A DNA stretch of 10,866 nt from a virus (IMGVR_UViG_2579778899_000010:1-10866); one strand, 5' to 3'; shown: positions 1-10,702, counted from the first letter of the stretch. Program-made: numbers and translations. The notes: generated from the sequence alone by a model not told the origin.

Positions 1-115
1 CACGTTCTAAGTTTTGGACGCCTGCTATAGAGATATCGACAGCCTCAGCAACTTCTCGCAACGTCAGCTTCATCTCTAAACGGCGTGCTTTCAGTCGTTC
101 GCCTCGTGTTTTCAT
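1..115 (-). CDS. Phage repressor-like HTH (XRE/cI family) regulator, N-terminal part only; gene continues beyond the window start
   Basis: Reverse complement of 115..1 reads ATG AAA ACA CGA GGC... = MKTRGERLKARRLEMKLTLREVAEAVDISIAGVQNLER, a typical XRE helix-turn-helix. It is divergent from the cro-like gene across operator repeats. A TATGAT hexamer lies 6 nt upstream of the ATG on the minus strand. The C-terminal domain is not visible. Confidence 0.75.
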   Translation of the reverse strand, partial: MKTRGERLKARRLEMKLTLREVAEAVDISIAGVQNLER

Positions 116-138
116 ACTGTAATCATAAATGATCTTCT

Positions 139-178
139 TATAGCTGGCTATAAAATTTATTTATTATAGCTGGCTTTA
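139..178. promoter_or_regulatory. Operator/divergent promoter region: two copies of TATAGCTGGCT(A/T)TA at 139-152 and 165-178 (imperfect 6-2-6 palindromes)
   Basis: Direct reading: TATAGC-TG-GCTATA at 139-152 and TATAGC-TG-GCTTTA at 165-178, centres 26 bp apart, between the divergently transcribed repressor-like and cro-like genes. The layout is that of lambdoid OR-type operators. Confidence 0.5.
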
Positions 179-206
179 ATTGTTGTTTATTGTTTATAAT
201 AACAAC

Positions 207-428
207 ATGAAACCAGAAGAACTTATTCGCCATTTTGGCAGTGTAGAAAAAGCAGCGGCAGGGGTAGGTGTAACACCCGGAGCTGTTTACCAATGGTTAA
301 CCGCTGGAGAGATTCCTTCATTGCGGCAAAGCGATATTGAAGTTCGTACTGCTTATAAGCTGAAGAGTGACTTTACAACTCGGCGGGTAAAGCAGTCGAT
401 TAAGGAGAGTCGTAAGCGTGGAGCTTGA
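207..428 (+). CDS. Cro-like small DNA-binding regulator (73 aa)
   Basis: ATG at 207 gives MKPEELIRHFGSVEKAAAGVGVTPGAVYQWLTAGEIPS..., with an HTH-like GSVEKAAAGVGVTPGAVYQW segment. It is first in the rightward operon, opposite the repressor. There is no SD; TATAAT at 195-200 sits 6 nt upstream of the ATG. The ORF track's 180 start is a TTG inside the operator. Confidence 0.65.
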   Translation: MKPEELIRHFGSVEKAAAGVGVTPGAVYQWLTAGEIPSLRQSDIEVRTAYKLKSDFTTRRVKQSIKESRKRGA

Positions 429-1128
429 GTATATACGCAGCTGCGTCTCTACGGCATTGGCTGATGTTCATTATCGCCAGCGTGGCATTCTGGAGGTCCA
501 GCTTGAGCAGATGCGTCTCGGTAGATCAGGACGGTTTAACAATAAACCAGTCCGGTCAATCAGTGTGGGGGATGATAACTCATACGAAGTGTCCGTTCCT
601 GCTGAGCCGGTTAGATTCCACCAGGGGAAAACATTTAAACAATCATCAATGTTGCTCACTGATATTGATTTTCAGAGCGCCAGCTGGCGCAGGGCTATTG
701 GTCAGTTGAATAACGAGGAATCAGCCTGGCTTTATTATTGCTACGGATGCAAGCCTGATTACAACAATGATGTGATTGTTTGTCAGTGGTTATGGCTTGA
801 TTTTCTGGTTGCTCATTCGGGGGGCGGCTTTAAAAAAATGAAGGCCTCCACGAAAAAAGCCATGCGGAAATTGATTTATTACGCGGCACAACAGGTTAAA
901 TCAGAACTTACGTGTGCTGAGGCAGTTGATGAGAGAGAACAGGACAGGCATCTGAGTTTTCTACTGAATATATCTATTGATAGCTGGAGACAAGATTATA
1001 AAGAACGCTGGCTTTTAATTAAGTCGCGATGTCTGAGCTTAAATCGAACTGCATTATTAAATGCGGCGGAGAAGCGCAGTGAAATCATCAAACGCCATCG
1101 GGCAGGAAGTGCCATTCTGTCTTTGTAA
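418..1128 (+). CDS. Hypothetical early-operon protein (236 aa); function not recognised (position is that of a cII-like or replication-type gene)
   Basis: GTG at 418 is preceded by the strong SD AAGGAGAG (401-408) and overlaps the cro-like stop. It is a long uninterrupted ORF in the operon frame. I cannot assign a family from the sequence alone. Confidence 0.6.
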   Translation: MELEYIRSCVSTALADVHYRQRGILEVQLEQMRLGRSGRFNNKPVRSISVGDDNSYEVSVPAEPVRFHQGKTFKQSSMLLTDIDFQSASWRRAIGQLNNEESAWLYYCYGCKPDYNNDVIVCQWLWLDFLVAHSGGGFKKMKASTKKAMRKLIYYAAQQVKSELTCAEAVDEREQDRHLSFLLNISIDSWRQDYKERWLLIKSRCLSLNRTALLNAAEKRSEIIKRHRAGSAILSL

Positions 1129-1135
1129 ACAAGTT

Positions 1136-1381
1136 ATGTTCAGGAAACCGTCGAAGCCAGAATTAAGGTATTCGGGGGTAAGAAATGAATATGTTATCTG
1201 GTGTCCAACTTGTGGTTACAGGACACGACCAGATAGTAATAAGCAGTCTGTAATTGCCGATTGGTATTTATCAAATCAGCCAGGTAATAAGCATATAGAA
1301 AATCTTTGGATTAAGCGTTACTTGGAAATCAGAGAGGGTGCGACCGTGGTCGCACAAGAAAATGAAAATAACGCCATTTAA
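1136..1381 (+). CDS. Small Cys-containing protein, putative zinc ribbon; start uncertain (1061 or 1136)
   Basis: The ORF contains WCPTCGY, and upstream FCLC if started at 1061. There is no clear SD. Its C-terminal codons (GATVVAQ) read straight through palindrome copy 1. Confidence 0.4.
   Translation: MFRKPSKPELRYSGVRNEYVIWCPTCGYRTRPDSNKQSVIADWYLSNQPGNKHIENLWIKRYLEIREGATVVAQENENNAI
1338..1355. repeat. Palindrome copy 1: GTGCGACC-GT-GGTCGCAC
   Basis: Read directly; 8-bp inverted arms around a central GT. Lies at the 1136/1362 gene junction, 6 nt before ATG 1362. Confidence 0.9.
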
Positions 1382-1565
1382 GCAGGGGCCGATGACGCAT
1401 GATGAAGCAGAGCGTCTTTCAGATACTTATCGGCGGCGTGGTAAGAAAGTTCTGGTTGTTCGTTCTGATTTTTTAGGTGATGGATATTGCGTTTATGTTC
1501 ATTTACCTGAATCAGAAAGAACGCCAAAACCATCCAGAACATATCAACAGAAAATTTGGGTATAG
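1362..1565 (+). CDS. Hypothetical small protein (67 aa); start uncertain (1362 or 1392)
   Basis: ATG at 1362 lies 6 nt after palindrome copy 1 and gives MKITPFKQGPMTHDEAERLSDTYRRRGKKVLVVRSDFLGDGYCVYVHLPESE.... The track's longer 1338 start is a GTG inside the palindrome. Confidence 0.4.
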   Translation: MKITPFKQGPMTHDEAERLSDTYRRRGKKVLVVRSDFLGDGYCVYVHLPESERTPKPSRTYQQKIWV

Positions 1566-1588
1566 ATAAACGTTGAGGAGAATTATTC

Positions 1589-2188
1589 GTGACTAATCAG
1601 ATTATTTACGACAGGAAACGGTCTGATGTAATGATTGACCTTGAAACAATGGGTACTAACACATGTGCTCCAATTGTTTCTATCGGGGCAGTGTTTTTTT
1701 CTCCAGAAAGTGAGGAATTAGGTCCTACTTTTTATGTGCCAGTGAATCTCAGAAGCTCGATGTTGAATGGTGGTATCGCCGATGGTGATACCATTTTATG
1801 GTGGTTGAAACAGAGCAAGGAAGCCAGAGCCGCTATTTGTACTAATGATGCCCTTGATATTAAGGATGCACTTTTTGAATTATCACACTTTATTACTTGC
1901 CATGCATGTAATTTAAAAAAATTGAAAGTATGGGGAAATGGAGCAACGTTCGATAATGTAATTTTACGCGGTGCTTATGAGCGCGTTGGCTTAGCCTGTC
2001 CGTGGGAATATTTTAATGATCAGGATGTTCGAACAATCGTTAATCTTGGTCAGTTTATTGGTTTTAATCCTAAAAAAGATATGCTATTTGATGGCGAACG
2101 ACACAATGCCCTGGCTGATGCTATTCATCAGGCTAAATATGTATCCGCAATTTTCTCCCGTCTTGTAAAAGGGCAAGGAGAATCGTAA
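1589..2188 (+). CDS. DEDDh-type 3'-5' exonuclease (DnaQ-like fold, phage Rv2179c-like family)
   Basis: GTG at 1589 with SD GAGGAG upstream. Motifs: D-x-E in MIDLETMG, a second Asp in GATFDNVIL, and H-x4-D in ERHNALADAIH. The size (199 aa) is typical. Confidence 0.8.
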   Translation: MTNQIIYDRKRSDVMIDLETMGTNTCAPIVSIGAVFFSPESEELGPTFYVPVNLRSSMLNGGIADGDTILWWLKQSKEARAAICTNDALDIKDALFELSHFITCHACNLKKLKVWGNGATFDNVILRGAYERVGLACPWEYFNDQDVRTIVNLGQFIGFNPKKDMLFDGERHNALADAIHQAKYVSAIFSRLVKGQGES

Positions 2189-2607
2189 TGGCAAAGGCTT
2201 TTACACCAGAACAGAGGGAAGAACTGAATAAACAAATTGTGGAACTCGTGCGCCTGAATGGACGAGGAACGGTTAGGCAACTTGCGGATGAAACTGGTAT
2301 TAGCCGGTGTGCTGTTAGTCGTTTATCAAGAGAGCTTGCTGCCAGTGGTGATTTGTATATCTCTGGCTCCGGGATATTTCTGTCTGCACAAGCACGCAAG
2401 GACTGGCAAAACGCCCGTAAAAAACTATCAAGAGTAAAGCCGAAGAAATCGGTAGTGGTTGATCCAGACCTTATCTGGTCATTACCTGACGGAGAAATAC
2501 GTCGTTACGACAGGCGCTTGAACATGATTTGTCACGATTGTCGGAAGAGCGAAGTTATGCAGCGTGTGTTGGCGTTTTATCAGGGAAATTTTCAGGAGGT
2601 GGCGTAG
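2188..2607 (+). CDS. Hypothetical protein with probable winged-helix/HTH segment (139 aa)
   Basis: SD AAGGAGA before ATG 2188, with TAATG overlap with the exonuclease stop. Candidate HTH in GTVRQLADETGISRCAVSRLSRELAASG. Confidence 0.65.
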   Translation: MAKAFTPEQREELNKQIVELVRLNGRGTVRQLADETGISRCAVSRLSRELAASGDLYISGSGIFLSAQARKDWQNARKKLSRVKPKKSVVVDPDLIWSLPDGEIRRYDRRLNMICHDCRKSEVMQRVLAFYQGNFQEVA

Positions 2608-2897
2608 TGAATATCGACACCACGATAACGATCGATACGGCCCTAAATACCGGTCTGGCACTTCTCGGTTGGTTTTACATCATGTTCAGTGCGGGGAAGT
2701 GGGCGGCCTCTGTTTTTCTAAAGCAGTGGGGAAAGCGCCGCAAACAGGAAAAACGCCAGAAAGCGTTGGAGGCGTTCTATGACGCATTTGAACTTAGCCG
2801 CATTGAGCCAGGCACAACAGCCAAGATAGCGACAAAAGGCGACCTGATGATAGTGATGTTCCGACAGGAGAGAGCAGAGAAAGGTGAATCAGCATGA
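2607..2897 (+). CDS. Small membrane protein (96 aa), one hydrophobic helix
   Basis: GTG at 2607 with SD AGGAGG at 2595-2600. Hydrophobic segment LALLGWFYIMFSAGKWAASVF is followed by a basic stretch KQWGKRRKQEKRQK. The track's 2529 start has no SD. Confidence 0.5.
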   Translation: MNIDTTITIDTALNTGLALLGWFYIMFSAGKWAASVFLKQWGKRRKQEKRQKALEAFYDAFELSRIEPGTTAKIATKGDLMIVMFRQERAEKGESA

Positions 2898-3643
2898 AAT
2901 TTTCTAAATTTTCTGAGTTGGTGAATCGTATTTTGTTGAATCGTATTTTGTCCAACAACCACAGCCATCGTCGCGATATGGATGTAACAATCGTTGTTCA
3001 TTCGCCTGGCAGCATTGGTTCAACACCTTCAGTTGAGGTTCAGTCAATTCACGCTGGTTTTGATTGGGATTCCGGGAAAGTGCTTATTTTCCCATCACAG
3101 CCACTGACCACGCTAACACCAGAACAGATTACTGATATCACTGATAGTGTGCGCAAAGGTCAGTCCTGGCACGCATATCAGGAATATAAAAATCATAAAG
3201 AGCAGTTGGAAAAATTGTCGATTGAGTTGGAATCAGCCAAAAATCACATAGCAGAACTGGAAGCCAAACCTGTAAGCCAAACTTACAAGTTAACTTTTGA
3301 GCAATGGCTGGAACAGCAGCATGACAAAATTGATGTTGATTGTGGATGTGTAAGTACTGAAATGCTTATGCACTGGATAAGGGTCGCGTATGAGGCTGGC
3401 AACTATCCGGTAACTCCGGATGGTTGGATAAGCTGTAGTGATCGAATGCCTGAAAAGGGCCAGAACGTGCTTATTTCGGTGAATTTCGATAGCTCTCTGG
3501 TTGAACCGCTAATATGCTCCGCACGCTATACCGGAAGCACCTTTCGGAGCGGAGATGCAACGATTAAGCCGGGTAATGGTATTGAGCAAGCAACTCACTG
3601 GATGCCACTACCAGAACCGCCGCAGGAGTCGAAGAGTGAATAA
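2894..3643 (+). CDS. DUF551-like phage protein (249 aa)
   Basis: ATG at 2894 after AAAGGTGA. The C-terminal portion GWISCSDRMPEKGQNVLIS...HWMPLPEPP matches what I recall of DUF551. An in-frame 15-bp tandem duplication lies near the 5' end. Confidence 0.65.
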   Translation: MKFSKFSELVNRILLNRILSNNHSHRRDMDVTIVVHSPGSIGSTPSVEVQSIHAGFDWDSGKVLIFPSQPLTTLTPEQITDITDSVRKGQSWHAYQEYKNHKEQLEKLSIELESAKNHIAELEAKPVSQTYKLTFEQWLEQQHDKIDVDCGCVSTEMLMHWIRVAYEAGNYPVTPDGWISCSDRMPEKGQNVLISVNFDSSLVEPLICSARYTGSTFRSGDATIKPGNGIEQATHWMPLPEPPQESKSE

Positions 3644-3857
3644 AGCAGAGTTATTTCAGAAAATATCGGCTCTCGCGACTGAATGCCACGCTATAGCATC
3701 TGAGCTTGATGTTGGTGATGAACGAACCGAGATGTTCGAAATATACAGTGTGCTGCGCAATCTCTGTCGGCGTGGCTACGCCACTCAAGTAGGGCGAATG
3801 ACTAACCCACTACTCTCATCCTGTGATGAGGATGACTCAGATGAGGATGACGAATGA
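3636..3857 (+). CDS. Small acidic protein (73 aa)
   Basis: GTG at 3636 with GGAG upstream, overlapping the preceding stop. The product ends in the acidic tail DEDDSDEDDE. The track's longer 3555 start overlaps the previous gene. Confidence 0.45.
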   Translation: MNKAELFQKISALATECHAIASELDVGDERTEMFEIYSVLRNLCRRGYATQVGRMTNPLLSSCDEDDSDEDDE

Positions 3858-4384
3858 TGCATAAATCAGTAGCCGGTGAGTTTCAGAAGGAAGTCGATAA
3901 TACTACCGTTCTATTGGACGATATTTTAAGCATTCTCGCGCTGCTTGAGGCTGGCGATTGGTCAGAACATTGCACTAAAACAGAGCTAGGCGGTCGGCTT
4001 GAAAGAGAGATTACACGACTTATTGGTGATGCGCAGGAAGCCACTGTCACTGGCTATGAGTTAATCGCTGAAGCTTGGCGTTTGATGGATGGACAAGACC
4101 CTAAAACCAGCGATTGGCATAGCAAGGCTTCGAAGTATTTAAATTCCAATATTGTAGAAAAAGTTGATGATGACCGTATTGAGGCCGTTAAGGCTGTGTT
4201 GCGTAGACTGGCTGGCAACTCTCCGGTAACTCCGGATGGTCATATTCAGTTTTCTGTTTCACTTCCTGCAGCGTTTGGTGGAGATAAATATTTTATTGAT
4301 GGTGTATTTCAACCTTTGAGATATGAGCGTGACTGTGAAAGGGCGGTTGTGGCCGCTGGCGGTGTAGTTAATTGGGTTAAGTAA
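3854..4384 (+). CDS. Hypothetical protein (176 aa)
   Basis: ATGA overlap with the upstream gene. It shares the peptide AGN(S/Y)PVTPDG with the DUF551-like protein, encoded by a 29/30-nt identical DNA segment. Confidence 0.65.
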   Translation: MMHKSVAGEFQKEVDNTTVLLDDILSILALLEAGDWSEHCTKTELGGRLEREITRLIGDAQEATVTGYELIAEAWRLMDGQDPKTSDWHSKASKYLNSNIVEKVDDDRIEAVKAVLRRLAGNSPVTPDGHIQFSVSLPAAFGGDKYFIDGVFQPLRYERDCERAVVAAGGVVNWVK

Positions 4385-4399
4385 TTTTCAGGAGGATTT

Positions 4400-4726
4400 A
4401 TGGCGCTGACACCGGCAGAACGGCAAAGGAGACGCAGGGAACGGTTGAAGAAGGAAGGCACATCAAGACGGGACTGGATTCTAGAACCTGACGAGTTACG
4501 TATGTTGGGGGAAATTTGTGTATTGCGTAGACCAGGGCGAGTTCCATATTCGGAGAACGAAGTCATTGGTTTGCTGATCAGGAAAAACTATAAGGAGCTG
4601 CAGAAGCAGCTATCTACTACTTGCCCGCGATGTGGTCAAAAAATGCCTGTTTCAGAATGCATTTTTGATGGCGAAGGGTCATGCCACCTTACAACCACGA
4701 GGCTGAAACTTGCGCTCAAAGCGTGA
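4400..4726 (+). CDS. Arginine-rich-motif protein with C-terminal Cys cluster (108 aa); candidate RNA-binding protein
   Basis: Strong SD CAGGAGG before ATG 4400. N-terminus MALTPAERQRRRRERLKKEG is an ARM-like basic stretch. C-terminus carries CPRCG...C...C. Confidence 0.7.
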   Translation: MALTPAERQRRRRERLKKEGTSRRDWILEPDELRMLGEICVLRRPGRVPYSENEVIGLLIRKNYKELQKQLSTTCPRCGQKMPVSECIFDGEGSCHLTTTRLKLALKA

Positions 4727-4744
4727 CTGGTCACGGAGGGATAA

Positions 4745-4987
4745 ATGGATAAAAAGGCATTGCTTTTTGAAATGATACGAAAACGGAGCGAAAAGAGCTT
4801 TTCTGATGGTGGTGATGGTTTTGTTTTCGCTTCGATGCTTTCTTTTGATGTTGGGTTAAATAGCAGAATTGTTAAAAGGATGCTTGATTCTGCTGTCCGT
4901 ACTGGACTTCTTGAGAAAGTTGATCGTGGCATAGGGAGAGAGCATAAGTATCGGGTCACACAGCAGTTTACGCAGTTAATTCATTGA
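4745..4987 (+). CDS. Hypothetical small protein, possible winged helix (80 aa)
   Basis: SD GGAGGG before ATG 4745. Last gene of the rightward early operon before the AT-rich SOS promoter region. Confidence 0.6.
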   Translation: MDKKALLFEMIRKRSEKSFSDGGDGFVFASMLSFDVGLNSRIVKRMLDSAVRTGLLEKVDRGIGREHKYRVTQQFTQLIH

Positions 4988-5008
4988 AAATTGACCGTAA
5001 AGTTTGAG

Positions 5009-5036
5009 TTTTACCCTGTAATTTTATACAGTATAA
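5009..5036 (+). promoter_or_regulatory. SOS-type promoter: -35 TTTACC (5009-5014), LexA box CTGTAATTTTATACAG (5015-5030), -10 TATAAA (5031-5036)
   Basis: CTGT-N8-ACAG with an AT-rich spacer is the E. coli LexA operator pattern. It exactly fills the 16-bp spacer between the -35-like and -10-like hexamers, 40 bp upstream of ATG 5070. Confidence 0.6.
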
Positions 5037-5069
5037 ATAACCTTTTTTAGTTAAATGGTATGAGATTTA

Positions 5070-5273
5070 ATGTCTGAAGCAGCCGTATCAACTCTTGAAC
5101 AACTCGATTCAAATTTAAGAGATATTGACGCCGTTCTGGATCTGGTTAGCGTCACCCTGGCTTCTCCAGAAGCCAGCCTACATATTGGTGAGGTTTCACG
5201 ACTCATCAACATGTCGCGAGAGATTGCCCAGCATTGTCAGCAAACTATCGCTGTTGAGCGTTCACATCATTGA
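5070..5273 (+). CDS. Small protein (67 aa) under putative LexA control; candidate SOS-induced antirepressor or induction factor
   Basis: ATG at 5070 downstream of the LexA-box promoter gives MSEAAVSTLEQLDSNLRDIDAVLDLVSVTLASPEASLHIGEVSRLINMSREIAQHCQQTIAVERSHH. SD is weak. Function is inferred from context only. Confidence 0.55.
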   Translation: MSEAAVSTLEQLDSNLRDIDAVLDLVSVTLASPEASLHIGEVSRLINMSREIAQHCQQTIAVERSHH

Positions 5274-5315
5274 TGCACACCCCGCCCTTCTGGACGGGGT
5301 AGTAAAAGAGTCTAA

Positions 5316-5603
5316 TTAATAAACAGCGCGAATATCGATGGTTGCGCCGCAGGCATGAGCATATTTAGCCAAAGTTTTCATACTTGCCCCTAAAGGATTG
5401 CTTTCCAGGCGGCTGATGGCTGACGGTCGCAACCCCATTCGTTCAGCCAGAGCTGATTTCGTTAAACCTGCTCTTTCCCTCATTTCGTATAACATTTCGA
5501 CCATCTCCAGCTCTTTGTCGGCCTCTTCATATCCTTTGACGGCTTCTGGAGTGTTGAGGAGTTTTTCTTTTACTTCGTTAAACGGGATGCCTTTCGCTTT
5601 CAT
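5316..5603 (-). CDS. HTH (XRE-family) antitoxin of a HigA-like type II TA pair (95 aa)
   Basis: Minus-strand ATG at 5603-5601 with SD AAGGAGA 7 nt upstream, overlapping the toxin stop by 1 nt. HTH segment LTKSALAERMGLRPSAISRLESN. Confidence 0.8.
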   Translation of the reverse strand: MKAKGIPFNEVKEKLLNTPEAVKGYEEADKELEMVEMLYEMRERAGLTKSALAERMGLRPSAISRLESNPLGASMKTLAKYAHACGATIDIRAVY

Positions 5604-5914
5604 CAGTTCATCTCCTTCAGGCGAGTTCTGGCGATTTCGATAGCCTTCACCGGTGTTTTCTGTGTCTTTTTTACAAATGCATGCAATAGATAAATTTCGT
5701 TACCAGTCGCGTAGGCGTACAGCGTTCTTGCGATGTTTTTATCCCCTACTCGTAGTTCAAAAAGCCCTCCACCTATTACACGGCTATGGGGCATCTTCAG
5801 TTTGTTGCCTTCCTTCTCCAGTCGCTCAATTAATCTGGTCATGCGACCTCGCAAATCATCTGGTAGTTCAAGCAGTTCATCCAGTGCTGCAGGGTGGGTT
5901 ATCACGTTAAACAT
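5603..5914 (-). CDS. RelE/ParE-superfamily toxin, HigB/Gp49-like (103 aa)
   Basis: Minus-strand ATG at 5914-5912 with GGAGG 7 nt upstream. Product MFNVITHPAALDELLELPDDLRGRMTRLIERL...GGLFELRVGDKNIARTLYAYATGNEIYLLHAFVKKTQKTP matches the RelE-fold Gp49/HigB pattern. Toxin-first order with a coupled HTH antitoxin. Confidence 0.8.
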   Translation of the reverse strand: MFNVITHPAALDELLELPDDLRGRMTRLIERLEKEGNKLKMPHSRVIGGGLFELRVGDKNIARTLYAYATGNEIYLLHAFVKKTQKTPVKAIEIARTRLKEMN

Positions 5915-6079
5915 ATTATAGCCTCCATAGCCATAAAATACACCAAAACAAGAAAAAAGCGCAAATTAAAAATTTCACTAAAAAGTTAAAAATAACACTG
6001 GATGTGTTCGTTTGGCAGAGTTACAGTTCGTGTCATTGAGGGGCAATAACCCACTAACTATATGAATTTGGAGGATATT

Positions 6080-6301
6080 ATGAATTATCAAGGTAACGAA
6101 AAAATGCGCGACGACGTTGCGGAGATAGCTAACGAACTGTATGAGTTGTGGCAGAAGGTTGAACGTTTCGAAAAGGAATATGGTTTCAACAGTACCAACC
6201 TGGCAGAACGACTGGCTGGTCGCTTAGTTGGGACTATGGGGCCAAAACTGGCTGAGTTGAACCGCTTTATGGCTGATGTTGATTTCCAGTTTCAAGATTG
6301 A
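6080..6301 (+). CDS. Hypothetical small protein (73 aa)
   Basis: Strong SD GGAGG (6069-6073) 6 nt before ATG 6080. The track's longer 6062 start has no SD. Confidence 0.55.
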   Translation: MNYQGNEKMRDDVAEIANELYELWQKVERFEKEYGFNSTNLAERLAGRLVGTMGPKLAELNRFMADVDFQFQD

Positions 6302-6314
6302 TTAGAGAGGCGTT

Positions 6315-6542
6315 ATGAATATTAATGAAATTCGTGGAAATATGACTGAAGCGGCCCTGAGTGTGGAATGTGTTATGCGTGGATACCCACGCATTTCCCT
6401 GAAAGAGTTAAGCGAAGCCTGTTTTTTGAGTCAAGCTGCCGTTGAATTTATCATCGAACAGATGATCTGTTTTGGGGTTGCAAAGCGTAGCGGGTCTGGT
6501 CGATATTCTTTGACCGATGAATATAAGCAGGCAACTTTCTAA
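6315..6542 (+). CDS. Hypothetical small protein with possible winged-helix DNA-binding fold (75 aa)
   Basis: SD GAGAGG before ATG 6315. Segment RISLKELSEACFLSQAAVEFIIEQMICFGVAKRSGSGRYSLT is wHTH-like. The stop lies 5 nt before palindrome copy 2. Confidence 0.5.
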   Translation: MNINEIRGNMTEAALSVECVMRGYPRISLKELSEACFLSQAAVEFIIEQMICFGVAKRSGSGRYSLTDEYKQATF

Positions 6543-6547
6543 AAACT

Positions 6548-6565
6548 GTGCGACCACGGTCGCAC
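6548..6565. repeat. Palindrome copy 2: GTGCGACC-AC-GGTCGCAC (central dinucleotide inverted relative to the other three; flanking T/A extend it to 20 bp, 6547-6566)
   Basis: Read directly. Immediately after the stop of the 6315..6542 gene and about 85 bp upstream of the intrinsic terminator. Confidence 0.9.
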
Positions 6566-6650
6566 AGCACAAAAACGAAAAAGCTTGGCAAAATTACGGT
6601 TTTTAGTTATTGTTTTGTTAAGTTGGGTTTTTTGTACCCAACATCCAACA

Positions 6651-6676
6651 AGCCGCCTTTATGGCGGTTTTTTTGT
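6651..6676 (+). terminator. Rho-independent terminator (hairpin AGCCGCC / GGCGGTT with 5-nt loop, then a T7 run)
   Basis: Sequence AGCCGCCTTTATGGCGGTTTTTTTGT: GC-rich stem plus a run of seven T, located between the small-gene pair and the methyltransferase. Confidence 0.6.
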
Positions 6677-6764
6677 GCCTGAAAAGTGGGCGCAGGACAA
6701 GTTGCAGCTTGTCCTGCGGTCAACCCATGCCAGAGCTATAGGCTGAACCTAAAGCCCACCCGCG

Positions 6765-7886
6765 ATGCGCATCGCCGGGTTAGCTTACCCAGGCAAAAAA
6801 ATAATAGCTATGTTCAAAACCACTAATATTCATGGCGCGCAACTCGTTTGCGCAGATTCTCTGCAATTTATCAAAACCATCCCTGATAACTCGGTCAATT
6901 TGATTGCAACAGACCCACCATACTTCGGCGTAAAGGCTAACGCATGGGATAACCAGTGGGATAGCGATGCTGACTTTTTGGGGTGGATTGATGAATTTTT
7001 GGCAGAATTTTGGCGGATATTGGCCCCTAATGGCAGCCTGTATATGTTTACCGGCTCTCGCCTTGCGTCAAAAATTGAATTATTAACTCGCGACCGTTTC
7101 AATGTTCTGAACCATATCATTTGGGCTAAACCCAGTGGTATGTGGCGCGGTTGTCATAAAGAAAGTTTAAGGGCTTATTTTCCTGCCACTGAAAGAATAT
7201 TATTTGCAGAGCATTACGGCGCGTCAGGTTATGCTAAAGGTCAGTCAGGTTATGCTTCAAAATGTGCAGATTTAAGAAAAAATATTTTTTCTCCACTAAT
7301 TGATGCTTTTTCGCTGGCTCGCCGTCAGTTAGATATATCAGCCGCAGACATTAATTCAGCAACAGGAAAGCAGATGTGTTCGCACTGGTTTTCTTATTCG
7401 CAGTGGCGGCTTCCATCATTAAGTGATTTTAATAAACTATGCGAATTATTTCGCAGGAAGGCAGATTCACTCGGTGTCCCGTGTCCATATCCTTTTAATG
7501 TTGATTATTCAGAACATGAAAAGCGTTATAGCGATCTGAAATTGCGTTATGAGGAAGTAAAGAAGCAGTATGATGATTTGAAGGCTCAGTATGAAAATTT
7601 GCGCCGCCCATTTCATGTTACTGCTGATGTACCTTATACCGATGTATGGGAGTTTCCTCCTGTGCAATATTATCCTGGCAAGCACCCATGTGAAAAACCT
7701 GCAGCGATGATGGAACATATTATAAAAAGTAGTTCCCGCCCCGGAGATATCGTTGCCGATTTCTTTATGGGATCAGGCTCTACTATTAAAGCCGCGCTGA
7801 AGTTAGGTCGTCAGGCAATCGGTATTGAGATTGAGGGTGAACGTTATCTTCAGACAGTTGATGAAGTGAAAAAGTTATTTGAGTAA
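6765..7886 (+). CDS. Orphan DNA methyltransferase, beta-class N6-adenine/N4-cytosine type (373 aa as drawn; alternative start ATG 6810)
   Basis: Motif IV DPPY in LIATDPPYFG near the N-terminus and motif I FFMGSGST near the C-terminus; this order is the beta-class permutation. A heptad-like insert YSEHEKRYSDLKLRYEEVKKQYDDLKAQYENL lies between them. Neither candidate start has an SD. No restriction endonuclease gene is adjacent. Confidence 0.85.
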   Translation: MRIAGLAYPGKKIIAMFKTTNIHGAQLVCADSLQFIKTIPDNSVNLIATDPPYFGVKANAWDNQWDSDADFLGWIDEFLAEFWRILAPNGSLYMFTGSRLASKIELLTRDRFNVLNHIIWAKPSGMWRGCHKESLRAYFPATERILFAEHYGASGYAKGQSGYASKCADLRKNIFSPLIDAFSLARRQLDISAADINSATGKQMCSHWFSYSQWRLPSLSDFNKLCELFRRKADSLGVPCPYPFNVDYSEHEKRYSDLKLRYEEVKKQYDDLKAQYENLRRPFHVTADVPYTDVWEFPPVQYYPGKHPCEKPAAMMEHIIKSSSRPGDIVADFFMGSGSTIKAALKLGRQAIGIEIEGERYLQTVDEVKKLFE

Positions 7887-7981
7887 CTGAAGAATATATT
7901 CCCCTGCCGTTTTTGATGGGGTTATTTCTCGCCGTATAGTTTCCAAGCCGAAACCTCAGCAACTATTGCGAGGTAAGAGAT

Positions 7982-8254
7982 ATGAAGATGGATGAACGAT
8001 ACAGCAGCGCATCTTATGGTAGTGCTGGTCTTACTGCGTTCTTTGCCAGCCTGTCATTGCAGGATTGGGGCTTCATTATCGGTGTCGCGTTCAGCATTAT
8101 CCTCGGTGTACTTACATACCGGCTCAATAAACGCGAGCAGATGAAGCGCACGAAGATATTGCAGGACATATTGGATAAAACTGATGCCAATAATATTTCC
8201 GCCACGGCGATGGTTATTGGTGAATTGGGAAAGAGAGCACCGAAGGAAATATGA
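7982..8254 (+). CDS. Holin, pinholin-like with two TMDs (90 aa), possible dual-start motif MKM
   Basis: ATG at 7982 and again at 7988. Two hydrophobic segments, [13 protein letters not shown] and [18 protein letters not shown], then a charged tail. Sits immediately upstream of, and overlapping, a SAR endolysin gene. Confidence 0.65.
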
Positions 8255-8817
8255 TGCAGTCATCATTACGCAAAGCTGTCGCAACTGCTATTGGTGGCGG
8301 GGCTATTGCCATAGCATCTGTGCTCATCTCTGGTCCGAGCGGCAACGATGGTCTGGAAGGTGTGAGACATAACCCCTACAAAGACATCGTTGGTGTATGG
8401 ACTGTATGTTACGGGCATACAGGAAAAGACATTATGCTCGGTAAAACGTATACCGAAGCAGAATGCAAAGCTCTCCTGAATAAAGACCTTGCTACTGTCG
8501 CCAGACAAATTAACCCGTACATCAAAGTCGATATACCGGAAACAACGCGTGGTGCTCTTTACTCGTTCGTTTACAACGTGGGTGCAGGCAATTTCAGAAC
8601 ATCGACACTTCTTCGCAAAATCAACCAGGGCGATATCAAAGGTGCATGTGATCAACTACGTCGCTGGACATATGCTGGCGGCAAGCAATGGAAAGGGCTG
8701 ATGACTCGCCGTGAGATTGAGCGTGAAGTCTGTTTGTGGGGCAGCAATGAGCAGAGTAACCGCAATTATCTCCGCACTGGTTATCTGCATCATCGTCTGC
8801 CTGTCGTGGGCTGTTAA
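8251..8817 (+). CDS. SAR-type endolysin (T4-lysozyme-like muramidase, GH24), with an apparently extended C-terminus (188 aa)
   Basis: N-terminal signal-anchor-release segment [26 protein letters not shown]. Catalytic region [25 protein letters not shown] carries the Glu/Asp/Thr arrangement. SD GAAGGAAAT precedes ATG 8251. The last 24 aa are the Rz leader read in another frame. Confidence 0.85.
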
Positions 8818-9208
8818 TCATTACCGTGATAACGCCATCGCCTACAAGGAGCAGCGCGACAAAAACGCCAGAGAGCTGAAGCTGGCGAACGCCACTATCA
8901 AAGACTTGCAGATCCGCCAGCGTGATGCAGCGGCGCTGGATGCCAAATACACGAAGGACTTAGCTGATGCCAAAAAGCAGCTTGATGATTTGCAGCGTTG
9001 TGTTCGCACTGGCAAGTGTGGGCTGCACCTCAACGCCAGATGTTCCGCGAACGGAGCGACCAGCACCGGCGGCCTGGGCGATGTTACCGGCCCCCGACTT
9101 ACTGACTCCGCTGAACGGGATTATTTCACCCTCAGAGAGCGAATCGTCACAGTGACGAAACAGGTTGGATATTTGCAGGAGTACATCAGGACGCAATGCC
9201 TGAATTAA
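8747..9208 (+). CDS. Rz: Rz i-spanin (153 aa)
   Basis: [49 protein letters not shown]... closely matches phage lambda Rz as I recall it: N-terminal TMD then a coiled-coil periplasmic domain, C-terminus ...YIRTQCLN. Confidence 0.85.
8967..9155 (+). CDS. Rz1: Rz1 o-spanin lipoprotein, nested within Rz in the +1 frame (62 aa)
   Basis: SD AAGGA 8 nt before ATG 8967. Signal peptide with lipobox-like ...ALASVGC, then a proline-rich mature part ending ...[11 protein letters not shown], as in lambda Rz1. Confidence 0.75.
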
Positions 9209-9249: not shown

Positions 9250-9561
9250 ATGAAAATTTATATTTCCGGGCCAATGACGGGATATGAGAACTCTAATCGT
9301 GACGCCTTTAATAAAGAGGCAGATCGTTTGTCACGACATGGTCACTCTGTCTTGAATCCAGCCACTTTGCCTAATGGTCTGACACAACGTGAATACATGG
9401 ATATTTGCTTTGCAATGCTTCGTTGTGCTGATGCTATTTTGATGCTTCCTGGCTGGAAAGCGTCTGCTGGAGCAACTGCTGAGTATCATTACGCATACAA
9501 GATGGAGATGCCGGTATTCACTACGCTGAATTACCCGCCAGCTTGTTCCTCTGTAGCATAA
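9250..9561 (+). CDS. Small protein with nucleoside 2-deoxyribosyltransferase-like N-terminus (DUF4406-like), 103 aa
   Basis: MKIYISGPMTGYENSNRDAFNKEADRL... resembles the N-terminal signature of NDT-like/DUF4406 proteins. The family assignment is from memory and unverified. First gene after Rz. Confidence 0.55.
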   Translation: MKIYISGPMTGYENSNRDAFNKEADRLSRHGHSVLNPATLPNGLTQREYMDICFAMLRCADAILMLPGWKASAGATAEYHYAYKMEMPVFTTLNYPPACSSVA

Positions 9562-9580
9562 AAATCTCTTTGTTTCTCGT

Positions 9581-9598
9581 GTGCGACCGTGGTCGCAC
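9581..9598. repeat. Palindrome copy 3: GTGCGACC-GT-GGTCGCAC
   Basis: Read directly. 19 nt after the stop of the 9250..9561 gene, preceded by the boxA-like string TCTCTTTG (9564-9571). Confidence 0.9.
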
Positions 9599-9800
9599 AT
9601 TAAATACCGCGCTGCATCGTCGCCGTATTTCCGCATTAACCATGACCGTAGCCCGACGGGGAACTCCTCTGCGCGAGTGTGCGGAAATAATCAAAAACGA
9701 TGCACACCGGGTTTTTACCGCGCTAATGATTCGCGGGTTTGTCCCTCATGCTCGCCAGTCCTGTGCGAGGGTGGAAGAAACAGGGCATGTATTCAGGAGC

Positions 9801-9818
9801 GTGCGACCGTGGTCGCAC
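9801..9818. repeat. Palindrome copy 4: GTGCGACC-GT-GGTCGCAC
   Basis: Read directly. Exactly 220 bp from copy 3 (start to start), 23 nt upstream of ATG 9842. Confidence 0.9.
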
Positions 9819-9841
9819 GGTATCTTTGTCAGGAGGTTTTG

Positions 9842-10702
9842 ATGAAAGAGTTGCAAAAAATTAATTCAATAATGGAAAGATTAAGTGCTCTTGAGCGTAA
9901 GCTGGACGATTGTGGAAAGCTGTGTGTTGAAAAGCAAAATGAGCTTTACCGGGAATTTTTTACAATCGTAAGTGAGCTGATGCCAATTGTTAATAACTGC
10001 CTGATGACATCCAGATTTTTTAATGTCGATGCTACTACATCCAGAAAATTTTCTGTGAAAATTCAAGAAAGAGTTTCTGGTAGTGTGACAAGAGAGATGG
10101 CTGAACAGTTGGTGGCAATGAGCAATAAAACAAAAAGAAAAAAGGCATTGCTTGTAACAGCAAATCAGCTTTCAGGGCGCGTTGACTTTCAGGTCAGACA
10201 GGGTGGGCGTGTACTGGTAAATGATGCGTTCGTTGGACGTAGCTTTAGTCCTTACTCGATAAAATATGATGTTGATGCAGATGATCAGGATATCAGCATT
10301 TCCTGGAAATCTGAGACAGCAGGAATTGTATTAACAGCAGAGTTGTTGAGTGATGATAAAAATGATGTCCAGCATCATTTGGACGAAAAGAATCATATTT
10401 CTGAAATTTGTATGAAGCCACGCAGCGGAATGACTTTATTGTCACGCACTCTTGCTGCTGGCTTTTCTGCACCGGAAAAACGTGTGCTTCTGGTAGTGCC
10501 TGAAGATGCAGATATTCGACCACTGAATGGCTGTGATGTTATTAGTGCAAAAACATTGCATACCCGCGTCATTCCTGTACCGGATGTGGTCATTATTGAT
10601 GATGTTGAGAAATGCAAGTCTGTTTCCTCAACTGCCACAATCAAGCGAATTTTACGTTGTAGCACGTCGGCTGTTGTATTCCGGAAGCAGTTACATAACT
10701 AA
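9842..10702 (+). CDS. Hypothetical protein, 286 aa, AT-rich moron gene of unknown function
   Basis: Strong SD AGGAGG (9831-9836) before ATG 9842. Long clean ORF with no hydrophobic helices noticed and no recognisable motifs. The track's 9581 start is a GTG inside palindrome copy 3. Confidence 0.7.
   Translation: MKELQKINSIMERLSALERKLDDCGKLCVEKQNELYREFFTIVSELMPIVNNCLMTSRFFNVDATTSRKFSVKIQERVSGSVTREMAEQLVAMSNKTKRKKALLVTANQLSGRVDFQVRQGGRVLVNDAFVGRSFSPYSIKYDVDADDQDISISWKSETAGIVLTAELLSDDKNDVQHHLDEKNHISEICMKPRSGMTLLSRTLAAGFSAPEKRVLLVVPEDADIRPLNGCDVISAKTLHTRVIPVPDVVIIDDVEKCKSVSSTATIKRILRCSTSAVVFRKQLHN

Follow-up and report, generated by a model that had tools for sequence, protein, structure and literature searches.

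In the telomere phages N15, phiKO2, and PY54, the genes cro and q form one operon within the primary immunity region immB (PMC10612081, PMC4488713), with PY54 carrying an additional open reading frame (ORF) between the two (PMC4488713). In N15 and PY54, repA alone constitutes a functional minimal circular replicon, and repA, telN, and telRL are enough for linear replication (PMC10612081); the prophage repressor CB also controls copy number by binding to operators located upstream of repA (PMC10612081, PMC4488713). The SopB-binding sequences of N15, designated IR1 to IR4, have been published (PMC7205306, Table 4). In this study, we compare with these systems a stretch of viral DNA of 10,866 nt, IMGVR_UViG_2579778899_000010:1-10866 (the whole stretch is called the window below, and coordinates count from its first letter). 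According to a preliminary description covering positions 1 to 9208, this DNA holds no recognisable Q antiterminator and no lambda O/P-type replication genes between its immunity region and its lysis cassette.

With a probability of about 0.94, the window represents the early-right and lysis arm of a telomere phage of the N15 kind (a linear plasmid prophage and relative of Ravinvirus N15) with N15-type Q control and RepA replication, and does not belong to a prophage in lambda order. A megablast search of the GenBank phages returned Escherichia phage PhiR46_1 (PV340565; 98.4% identity across 91% of the window) and YDC107_1 (CP025712; 98.6% identity across 87%), and the top match among complete E. 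coli genomes was the linear 47.6-kb plasmid pCAVP367-48 (NZ_CP145143; 98.9% identity over 97%). Of 5426 complete E. coli genomes, 16 contain at least 80% of the window; the 12 best of these records measure 36-75 kb (mostly 46-51 kb), among them pCAVP367-48 with its annotation as a linear plasmid. The near-identical relatives (98-99% identity over 87-97% of the window) are complete linear plasmid or phage records of about 46-48 kb equipped with telL, protelomerase, RepA, cB, cro, Q, and a full lambda-like virion module, and they differ from the window by insertions and deletions in the accessory block (region 3854..4384). The cB-cro-Q block is approximately 74% identical to N15, phiKO2, and several Klebsiella and Enterobacter N15-like phages (megablast).

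The window is syntenic with N15 genes 38-59. In the RefSeq annotation of N15, gene 38 (cB, with the CB operators) is followed by 39 (cro), 40 ('anti-termination protein Q-like'), 41 (exonuclease), small genes, the toxin-antitoxin genes 48/49 on the opposite strand, 50 and 51, a -35/-10 pair and a stem-loop terminator between 51 and 52, 52 (methylase), 53 (holin), 54 (lysozyme), 55 (a DUF2514 protein in the spanin position), and 57 (DUF4406). The window has, in the same order, the N-terminus of cB, the OR operators, cro, Q, an accessory block of about 5 kb with exonuclease, small genes, an opposite-strand toxin-antitoxin pair, and gp50/gp51 equivalents, then a SopB site, the late promoter and terminator, a leader, and the methylase, holin, endolysin, and Rz/Rz1 genes followed by DUF4406. 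The canonical lambdoid order (cI-cro-cII-O-P-nin-Q) assumed in the preliminary description is the wrong frame of reference for this DNA, which follows the N15 order. The differences from N15 itself are nevertheless considerable: nucleotide identity is about 74% and extends only over parts of the window, other accessory genes occupy the 1.1-5.3 kb block, the methylase is a different and longer one, lambda-type Rz/Rz1 genes are present instead of the DUF2514 protein gp55, and the N15 cytosine methylase gene 58 has no counterpart in the window. The elements concerned with immunity, partition, and late control are the following.

1..115, minus strand: N-terminal 38 codons of cB, the prophage repressor and CI analogue (match to the helix-turn-helix family HTH_3), with the gene continuing leftward beyond the window
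125..206, no strand assigned: OR operator and early-promoter region between cB and cro, with TTATAGCTGGCTATAA-type palindromes, aligning nearly base for base with the N15 CB operator interval 34729..34793
207..428, plus strand: cro, lytic repressor (PF14549 P22_Cro, E=2.5e-22; 87% identical to N15 gp39; start as set by the NCBI annotation pipeline, PGAP, in pCAVP367-48)
418..1128, plus strand: predicted late-gene antiterminator Q of the phage-82 type, 236 amino acids (PF06323, phrog_304, identity to N15 gp40)
1338..1355, no strand assigned: putative SopB palindrome GTGCGACCGTGGTCGCAC, downstream of Q and inside the 3' end of a Lar-like ORF
6548..6565, no strand assigned: putative SopB palindrome GTGCGACCACGGTCGCAC, the IR3 equivalent, its centre about 63 bp ahead of the inferred start of late transcription
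6585..6613, plus strand: late promoter, TTGGCA, 17-nt spacer, TATTGT (promoter scan; alignment with the annotated -35 and -10 of N15 and phiKO2)
6650..6676, plus strand: intrinsic terminator, analogue of lambda tR' (terminator scan, a stem of 8 pairs with a T7 run behind it; alignment with the annotated terminators of N15 and phiKO2)
6677..6809, plus strand: conserved structured leader RNA, a three-way junction P0/P1/P2 followed by hairpins P3 and P4 (covariance model, covariation, and folding)
9581..9598 and 9801..9818, no strand assigned: two putative SopB palindromes flanking a non-coding stretch of about 200 bp downstream of the DUF4406 gene

Judged by sequence similarity, the product of 418..1128 is the Q antiterminator. 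It matches the Pfam family PF06323 'Phage antitermination protein Q' with E=4e-84 and 282 bits (cut-off 25), residues 2-229 aligning with positions 2-219 of the 220 model positions, as well as phrog_304 'anti-termination protein Q-like' with E=2e-72, and it is 67% identical to N15 gp40 over the full length. By tblastn, homologues were found in 70 phage records, and most of the annotated ones are named Q or antiterminator, including ORF43 of PY54, which is about 31% identical to the window protein, and Q of Gifsy-1, whose record notes it as similar to Q of phage 82. PGAP names the protein 'bacteriophage antitermination protein Q' in pCAVP367-48. The profile searches overturn the statement that no Q is recognisable; the suggestion that precisely this 236-amino-acid product supplies the missing functions holds for Q and fails for replication, as no product of the interval is a replication protein. 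The Q gene starts 11 nt before the stop of cro, an overlap also found in N15, phiKO2, and PY54, and with cB, OR, cro, and Q in this arrangement, cro and Q in one operon, the window has the immB module that characterizes N15-like telomere phages. The same immB logic (CI/CB, Cro, Q) is found in phiKO2 and PY54. The counterparts of cB are cI/XRE genes in PhiR46_1 (8555..9151) and pCAVP367-48 (8495..9091) and gene 38 in N15.

The second half of the preliminary statement was borne out: in searches against Pfam, PHROGs, and NCBIfam, no ORF of the tiled map in 1..9208, nor any up to 10702, matched lambda O/P, DnaC-like loader, primase, helicase, or other replication-initiator families. This absence is to be expected, because the N15-type relatives replicate via one large RepA encoded left of the window. 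In PhiR46_1 (4314..8309) and pCAVP367-48, the gene for this protein of 1331 amino acids runs leftward about 250 bp past the far end of cB; the protein is 76% identical to N15 gp37 over 1319 amino acids and matches the NCBIfam entry 'plasmid replication protein, CyRepA1 family' with E=1.2e-76. Further left, these relatives have immA-like genes, then the protelomerase gene, and then the telL end. The PhiR46_1 protelomerase (203..2104) has all four TelK/ResT domains with E-values down to 1.6e-50, and the telL site of this phage is annotated at 1..22. By this model, a single multidomain RepA of about 1330 amino acids (primase/helicase-like, CyRepA1), encoded leftward beyond cB, would serve both plasmid and lytic replication in place of O and P, and the protelomerase would make the hairpin ends. 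As a matter of annotation, the PhiR46_1 record labels its protelomerase (203-2104) and Q (9454-10164) as 'hypothetical protein' and the exonuclease as 'exodeoxyribonuclease VIII', which could be corrected.

One might instead suppose that a novel replication module with an unrecognised initiator lies between Q and the lysis genes, formed for example by the DUF977, DUF551, or winged-helix-like product together with the exonuclease. About a dozen products have no assigned function, and some of them show DNA-binding-like motifs (weak winged-helix matches of the DUF977 protein; phrog_536 'transcriptional regulator'). However, no product reaches a replication family in any of the three libraries, including those encoded in the run 2188..5273, the relatives sharing the accessory genes all have RepA, and repA alone is the minimal replicon in N15 and PY54, repA, telN, and telRL being enough for the linear form (PMC10612081). 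The accessory block is moreover variable, and its gene 3854..4384 is missing or truncated in PhiR46_1 and pCAVP367-48, which would be unexpected for an essential replication gene. We therefore regard such a module as very improbable.

Partition sites of the N15 type are a further mark of the window. An 18-bp palindrome, GTGCGACC(GT/AC)GGTCGCAC, occurs at positions 1338, 6548, 9581, and 9801, giving eight strand matches compared to 0.42 expected, a number reached in none of 200 shuffles. The window palindromes are exactly those of N15 IR1 and IR4 and equal IR3 except for the two central bases, and the flanks of IR3 agree with the N15 alignment. The repeats (GTGCGACCNNGGTCGCAC) are dispersed rather than clustered as a sopC, as is typical of N15-like phages, and on this similarity the four palindromes are the predicted dispersed SopB-binding centromere sites of this phage type. 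The palindrome at 1338..1355 lies at what we take to be the position of IR2 in N15. In phiKO2, the spot equivalent to 6548..6565 is labelled 'putative plasmid partitioning site', whereas PY54-like elements have a palindrome of the F-plasmid type (TGGGACC..GGTCCCA) at the promoter position. The two window sites after DUF4406 compare with one match to the palindrome pattern in the fetched N15 right arm. Besides their role in partition, the N15 SopB sites are said to aid late expression.

The late control region of the window lies 5.5 kb downstream of Q and ahead of the methylase and lysis genes. In an alignment, positions 6543..6809 match N15 and phiKO2 column for column at the late promoter and terminator annotated in these phages, and the same region (partition site, -35/-10, terminator, structured leader, methylase) is present in phiKO2 and PY54. 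As expected for the Q family, a cognate late promoter and a promoter-proximal terminator precede the lysis and virion genes, the terminator lying about 30-55 nt into the late transcript and being the presumed target of Q antitermination. The promoter is followed by an invariant TAAGTTGG and then a hairpin, 6622..6642, which covaries between phages; both the invariant sequence and this initial-transcript hairpin are candidate Q-loading or pause signals. No common Q-utilisation motif could be derived from the late regions downstream of same-family Q genes in Gifsy-1 and PhiR47_2, in which no resemblance to 6540..6810 was evident. An ORF of 53 amino acids at 6585..6746, given as a coding sequence in PhiR46_1, is almost certainly not a gene, for it spans the promoter, the terminator, and leader RNA and matches no family.

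The following sequence of events would account for late control in this element. Once repression by CB is lifted, the early promoter would transcribe cro and Q as one operon. The Q protein would then act in trans at the late promoter, where it would load on RNA polymerase paused just after initiation, and the modified polymerase would read through the terminator into the methylase, holin, endolysin, and Rz/Rz1 genes and subsequently into the lambda-like virion genes, which are seen in the relatives. These steps follow the established behaviour of the Q proteins of lambda, 21, and 82, and by this analogy the action of Q in trans with read-through of 6650..6676 is the most likely mechanism of late control. 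For N15, work by Ravin, Rech and Lane of 2008 (J Bacteriol 190:3538) is reported to have placed Q about 6 kb from the late promoter p52, with antitermination by Q there, and SopAB bound at IR2 and IR3 reportedly boosts late expression. With lambda and phage 82 the window shares a Q-family protein (of the PF06323 branch, which includes the phage-82-like Q of Gifsy-1) and a strong promoter with an intrinsic terminator within about 50 nt, situated before the lysis genes. In lambda, however, Q adjoins PR' and depends on N, whereas the window Q is transcribed together with cro, and its late promoter follows only 5.5 kb downstream; N, cII, O, P, and nin genes are lacking in the window. The suspicion of a different control logic was supported, yet the logic is that known from N15, with a cB-cro-Q operon, RepA beyond the repressor gene, and a late promoter distant from Q.

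Several points weigh against the assignment to an N15-like telomere phage or against parts of it. The window ends 115 nt into cB, and repA, telN, and telomeres of this very element are presumed from its relatives with 98-99% identity across the window. A sequence search of the PDB with Q yielded no relative at E<=0.01, and the proposed loading on RNA polymerase is extrapolated from the Q-lambda and Q21 families. Antitermination by Q and the use of the promoter and terminator are ascribed to this element by family membership and by analogy with reported work on N15. Finally, the endolysin gene carries a terminal frameshift, so that full lytic competence of the window copy is not guaranteed: compared with PhiR46_1 and pCAVP367-48, in which the gene has its normal stop, one G is missing from the run 8738..8741 and the stop (W-G-Q-Q-stop) is lost. 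The resulting protein has 187-188 instead of 165 amino acids, with 24 residues added and two lost, and its reading frame overlaps Rz, while the catalytic domain is intact; the deletion may reflect a true mutation or an error in sequencing the homopolymer.

That the window stems instead from a defective lambdoid chromosomal prophage, in which the O/P module and Q were deleted and the immunity region became fused to accessory and lysis genes, a version of the defective prophage considered in the preliminary description, would agree with the lack of O/P-type matches, the endolysin frameshift, and lysis genes about 86% identical to lambda-type R/Rz/bor regions, but is extremely improbable in view of an intact Q, the collinearity of the entire 10.9 kb with complete linear records of about 46-48 kb with RepA, protelomerase, and full virion modules, a gene order equal to that of N15 gene for gene, and dispersed SopB sites that make sense only on a partitioned plasmid. 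For the N15-like telomere phage, the layout is complete and normal, and the only blemish seen is the 1-nt deletion at the end of the endolysin gene. The genes that appeared to be missing reflect the normal layout of a known phage type, because Q directly follows cro and RepA is encoded just left of the window in the relatives. This N15-type layout and the Q and replication strategy are already known, and PGAP already names all these genes.

The only element of the window that may be new is the leader RNA at 6677..6809, which is approximately 97% identical to N15, compared to about 74% over parts of the window as a whole. A set of such leaders was collected from IMG/VR with a terminator-anchored pattern and comprised 63 loci with 39 distinct leaders (50 with longer flanks), or 21 after collapsing sequences at least 97% identical. 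The structure was derived by hand from sequences of the phiKO2/PY54 type, and a covariance model was built on 13 sequences of this type only; RNAalifold on a plain MAFFT alignment had given an incomplete structure with helices mis-registered between clades, and the hand-derived structure and the covariance-model alignment were used instead. In helix P0, UGGGC pairs with GCCCA, the outermost pair alternating between G-C and A-U, and encloses a long hairpin (P1) and a short one (P2). P3 follows with a loop UGCGCA that is invariant but for one divergent sequence (L008), and P4 comes after P3. The segments UGGGCGC and GCCCA are invariant, and CCCAUGCC and UGCGCA nearly so. An alternative pairing of UGGG is possible with a conserved CCCAU just 3' of P1.

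The covariance model scored the window with 57.6 bits (E of about 1e-13) and every N15-type sequence with 42-58 bits. In the model-fitted alignment of 30 distinct sequences, standard pairs occupy 88.3% of the cells compared to 71.8% in shuffles, with none of 500 shuffles reaching the observed value, the covariation score is 0.423 compared to 0.160 in shuffles, and 17 of 30 pairs have changes on both sides, figures to be read with the reservation that the alignment was fitted to the structure and that most swaps separate just two clades. When the partners were slid by 1-3 columns as a control, 28-41% of the cells were paired. For the window leader, the folding energy is -55.4 kcal/mol and the z-score -4.8. 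At a permissive threshold, Rfam 15 contained no family for the leader and gave only sub-threshold, chance-level matches driven by the terminator hairpin, namely AgrB with 28 bits (gathering threshold 40) and ctRNA_pGA1 with 23 bits (gathering threshold 45); ARAGORN found neither a transfer RNA nor a transfer-messenger RNA in the whole window.

The leader RNA is common to telomere phages of the N15, phiKO2, and PY54 types. A scan with an RNA-only pattern plus the model recovered only three further copies, and the one inspected (L096) lies in a context of partition site, promoter, terminator, RNA, and methylase; the cassette formed by the first four of these elements recurs in all copies whose surroundings were inspected. 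Several of the IMG/VR contigs (L079/L096, L023/L035, L037/L057, and others) have two copies of the late control region in opposite orientation, and one of them has 83 kb, about twice the phage genome length; this doubling looks like a head-to-head palindromic assembly of hairpin-ended linear plasmids. We tentatively consider, at odds well below even, that the leader is a cis-acting structured RNA not described so far, confined to enterobacterial telomere phages and with a role in late-gene control, in which case the partition site, promoter, hairpin, terminator, and RNA, conserved as a cassette, would form one regulatory unit linking the partition proteins to late transcription. Candidate roles are that the RNA could process or stabilise the Q-modified late transcript, could provide a second antitermination or pause checkpoint, or could gate translation of the methylase.

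The remaining genes of the window are a series of accessory early genes, the first late genes, and the lysis cassette.

1136..1381, plus strand: Lar-like restriction-alleviation gene, N15 'orf QD1' (phrog_6795, E=1.5e-45; weak PF14354)
1589..2188, plus strand: 3'-5' exonuclease (PF16473, E=2.8e-67; phrog_255)
2188..2607, plus strand: small accessory gene, DUF977/Ren-like (profile scan; start from PGAP on pCAVP367-48, as for the seven genes that follow)
2607..2897, plus strand: small accessory gene, DUF4752 (profile scan)
2894..3643, plus strand: small accessory gene, DUF551 (profile scan)
3636..3857, plus strand: small accessory gene
3854..4384, plus strand: small accessory gene
4400..4726, plus strand: small accessory gene
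4745..4987, plus strand: small accessory gene
5070..5273, plus strand: small accessory gene
5316..5603, minus strand: helix-turn-helix antitoxin (HTH_3)
5603..5914, minus strand: Gp49/RelE-ParE-type toxin (PF05973, E=2.5e-29); the pair corresponds to N15 genes 49 and 48
6062..6301 and 6315..6542, plus strand: two small genes equivalent to N15 gp50 and gp51, winged-helix-like (phrog_4830, phrog_331; synteny)
6810..7886, plus strand: DNA N6/N4 methyltransferase, first late gene (PF01555, E=1.3e-46; ATG conserved across telomere phages; PGAP start)
7982..8254, plus strand: holin (weak matches to holin families; annotated as holin in PhiR46_1)
8251..8817, plus strand: endolysin (PF00959, E=7.7e-48; alignment with two relatives)
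8747..9208, plus strand: Rz spanin (PF03245, E=3e-38)
8967..9155, plus strand: Rz1 lipoprotein gene, embedded in Rz (PF06085, E=7e-16)
9250..9561: DUF4406 gene

Several of these genes had been recognised before, and the exonuclease, whose analogue in N15 (gene 41) is larger, and the toxin-antitoxin module on the minus strand (5316..5914) were confirmed. The methyltransferase was likewise confirmed by its PF01555 match, with a corrected start: the ATG at 6765, which is located inside hairpin P3 of the leader, was dropped for the conserved ATG at 6810, in agreement with PGAP. The SOS gene mentioned for the interval found no support, as no product matched an SOS-related family in Pfam, PHROGs, or NCBIfam; going by the title of a paper, an SOS-controlled antirepressor of N15 is said to lie in another locus. 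The 176-amino-acid product of 3854..4384 points to a variable accessory slot, since PhiR46_1 and pCAVP367-48 lack it or have it in truncated form. Among the larger unknown products, PADLOC returned generic helix-turn-helix, toxin, and methylase matches only and no defence system. At the right end, a product of 286 amino acids (9842-10702) is conserved in phages (phrog_2571, E=7e-164) and has no match in Pfam, NCBIfam, or PADLOC.

The leader RNA is placed exactly where the Q-modified polymerase would enter the late operon; for late transcription in telomere phages, help by SopAB bound next to this promoter is reported. For N15-type phage-plasmids in general, the lambda gene order is a misleading template. 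The analysis has some practical value: some deposited relatives such as PhiR46_1 still have Q, TelN, and other genes listed as 'hypothetical', and a lineage of N15-like linear plasmids in E. coli, represented by the 16 complete genomes mentioned above, is put on record by the window.

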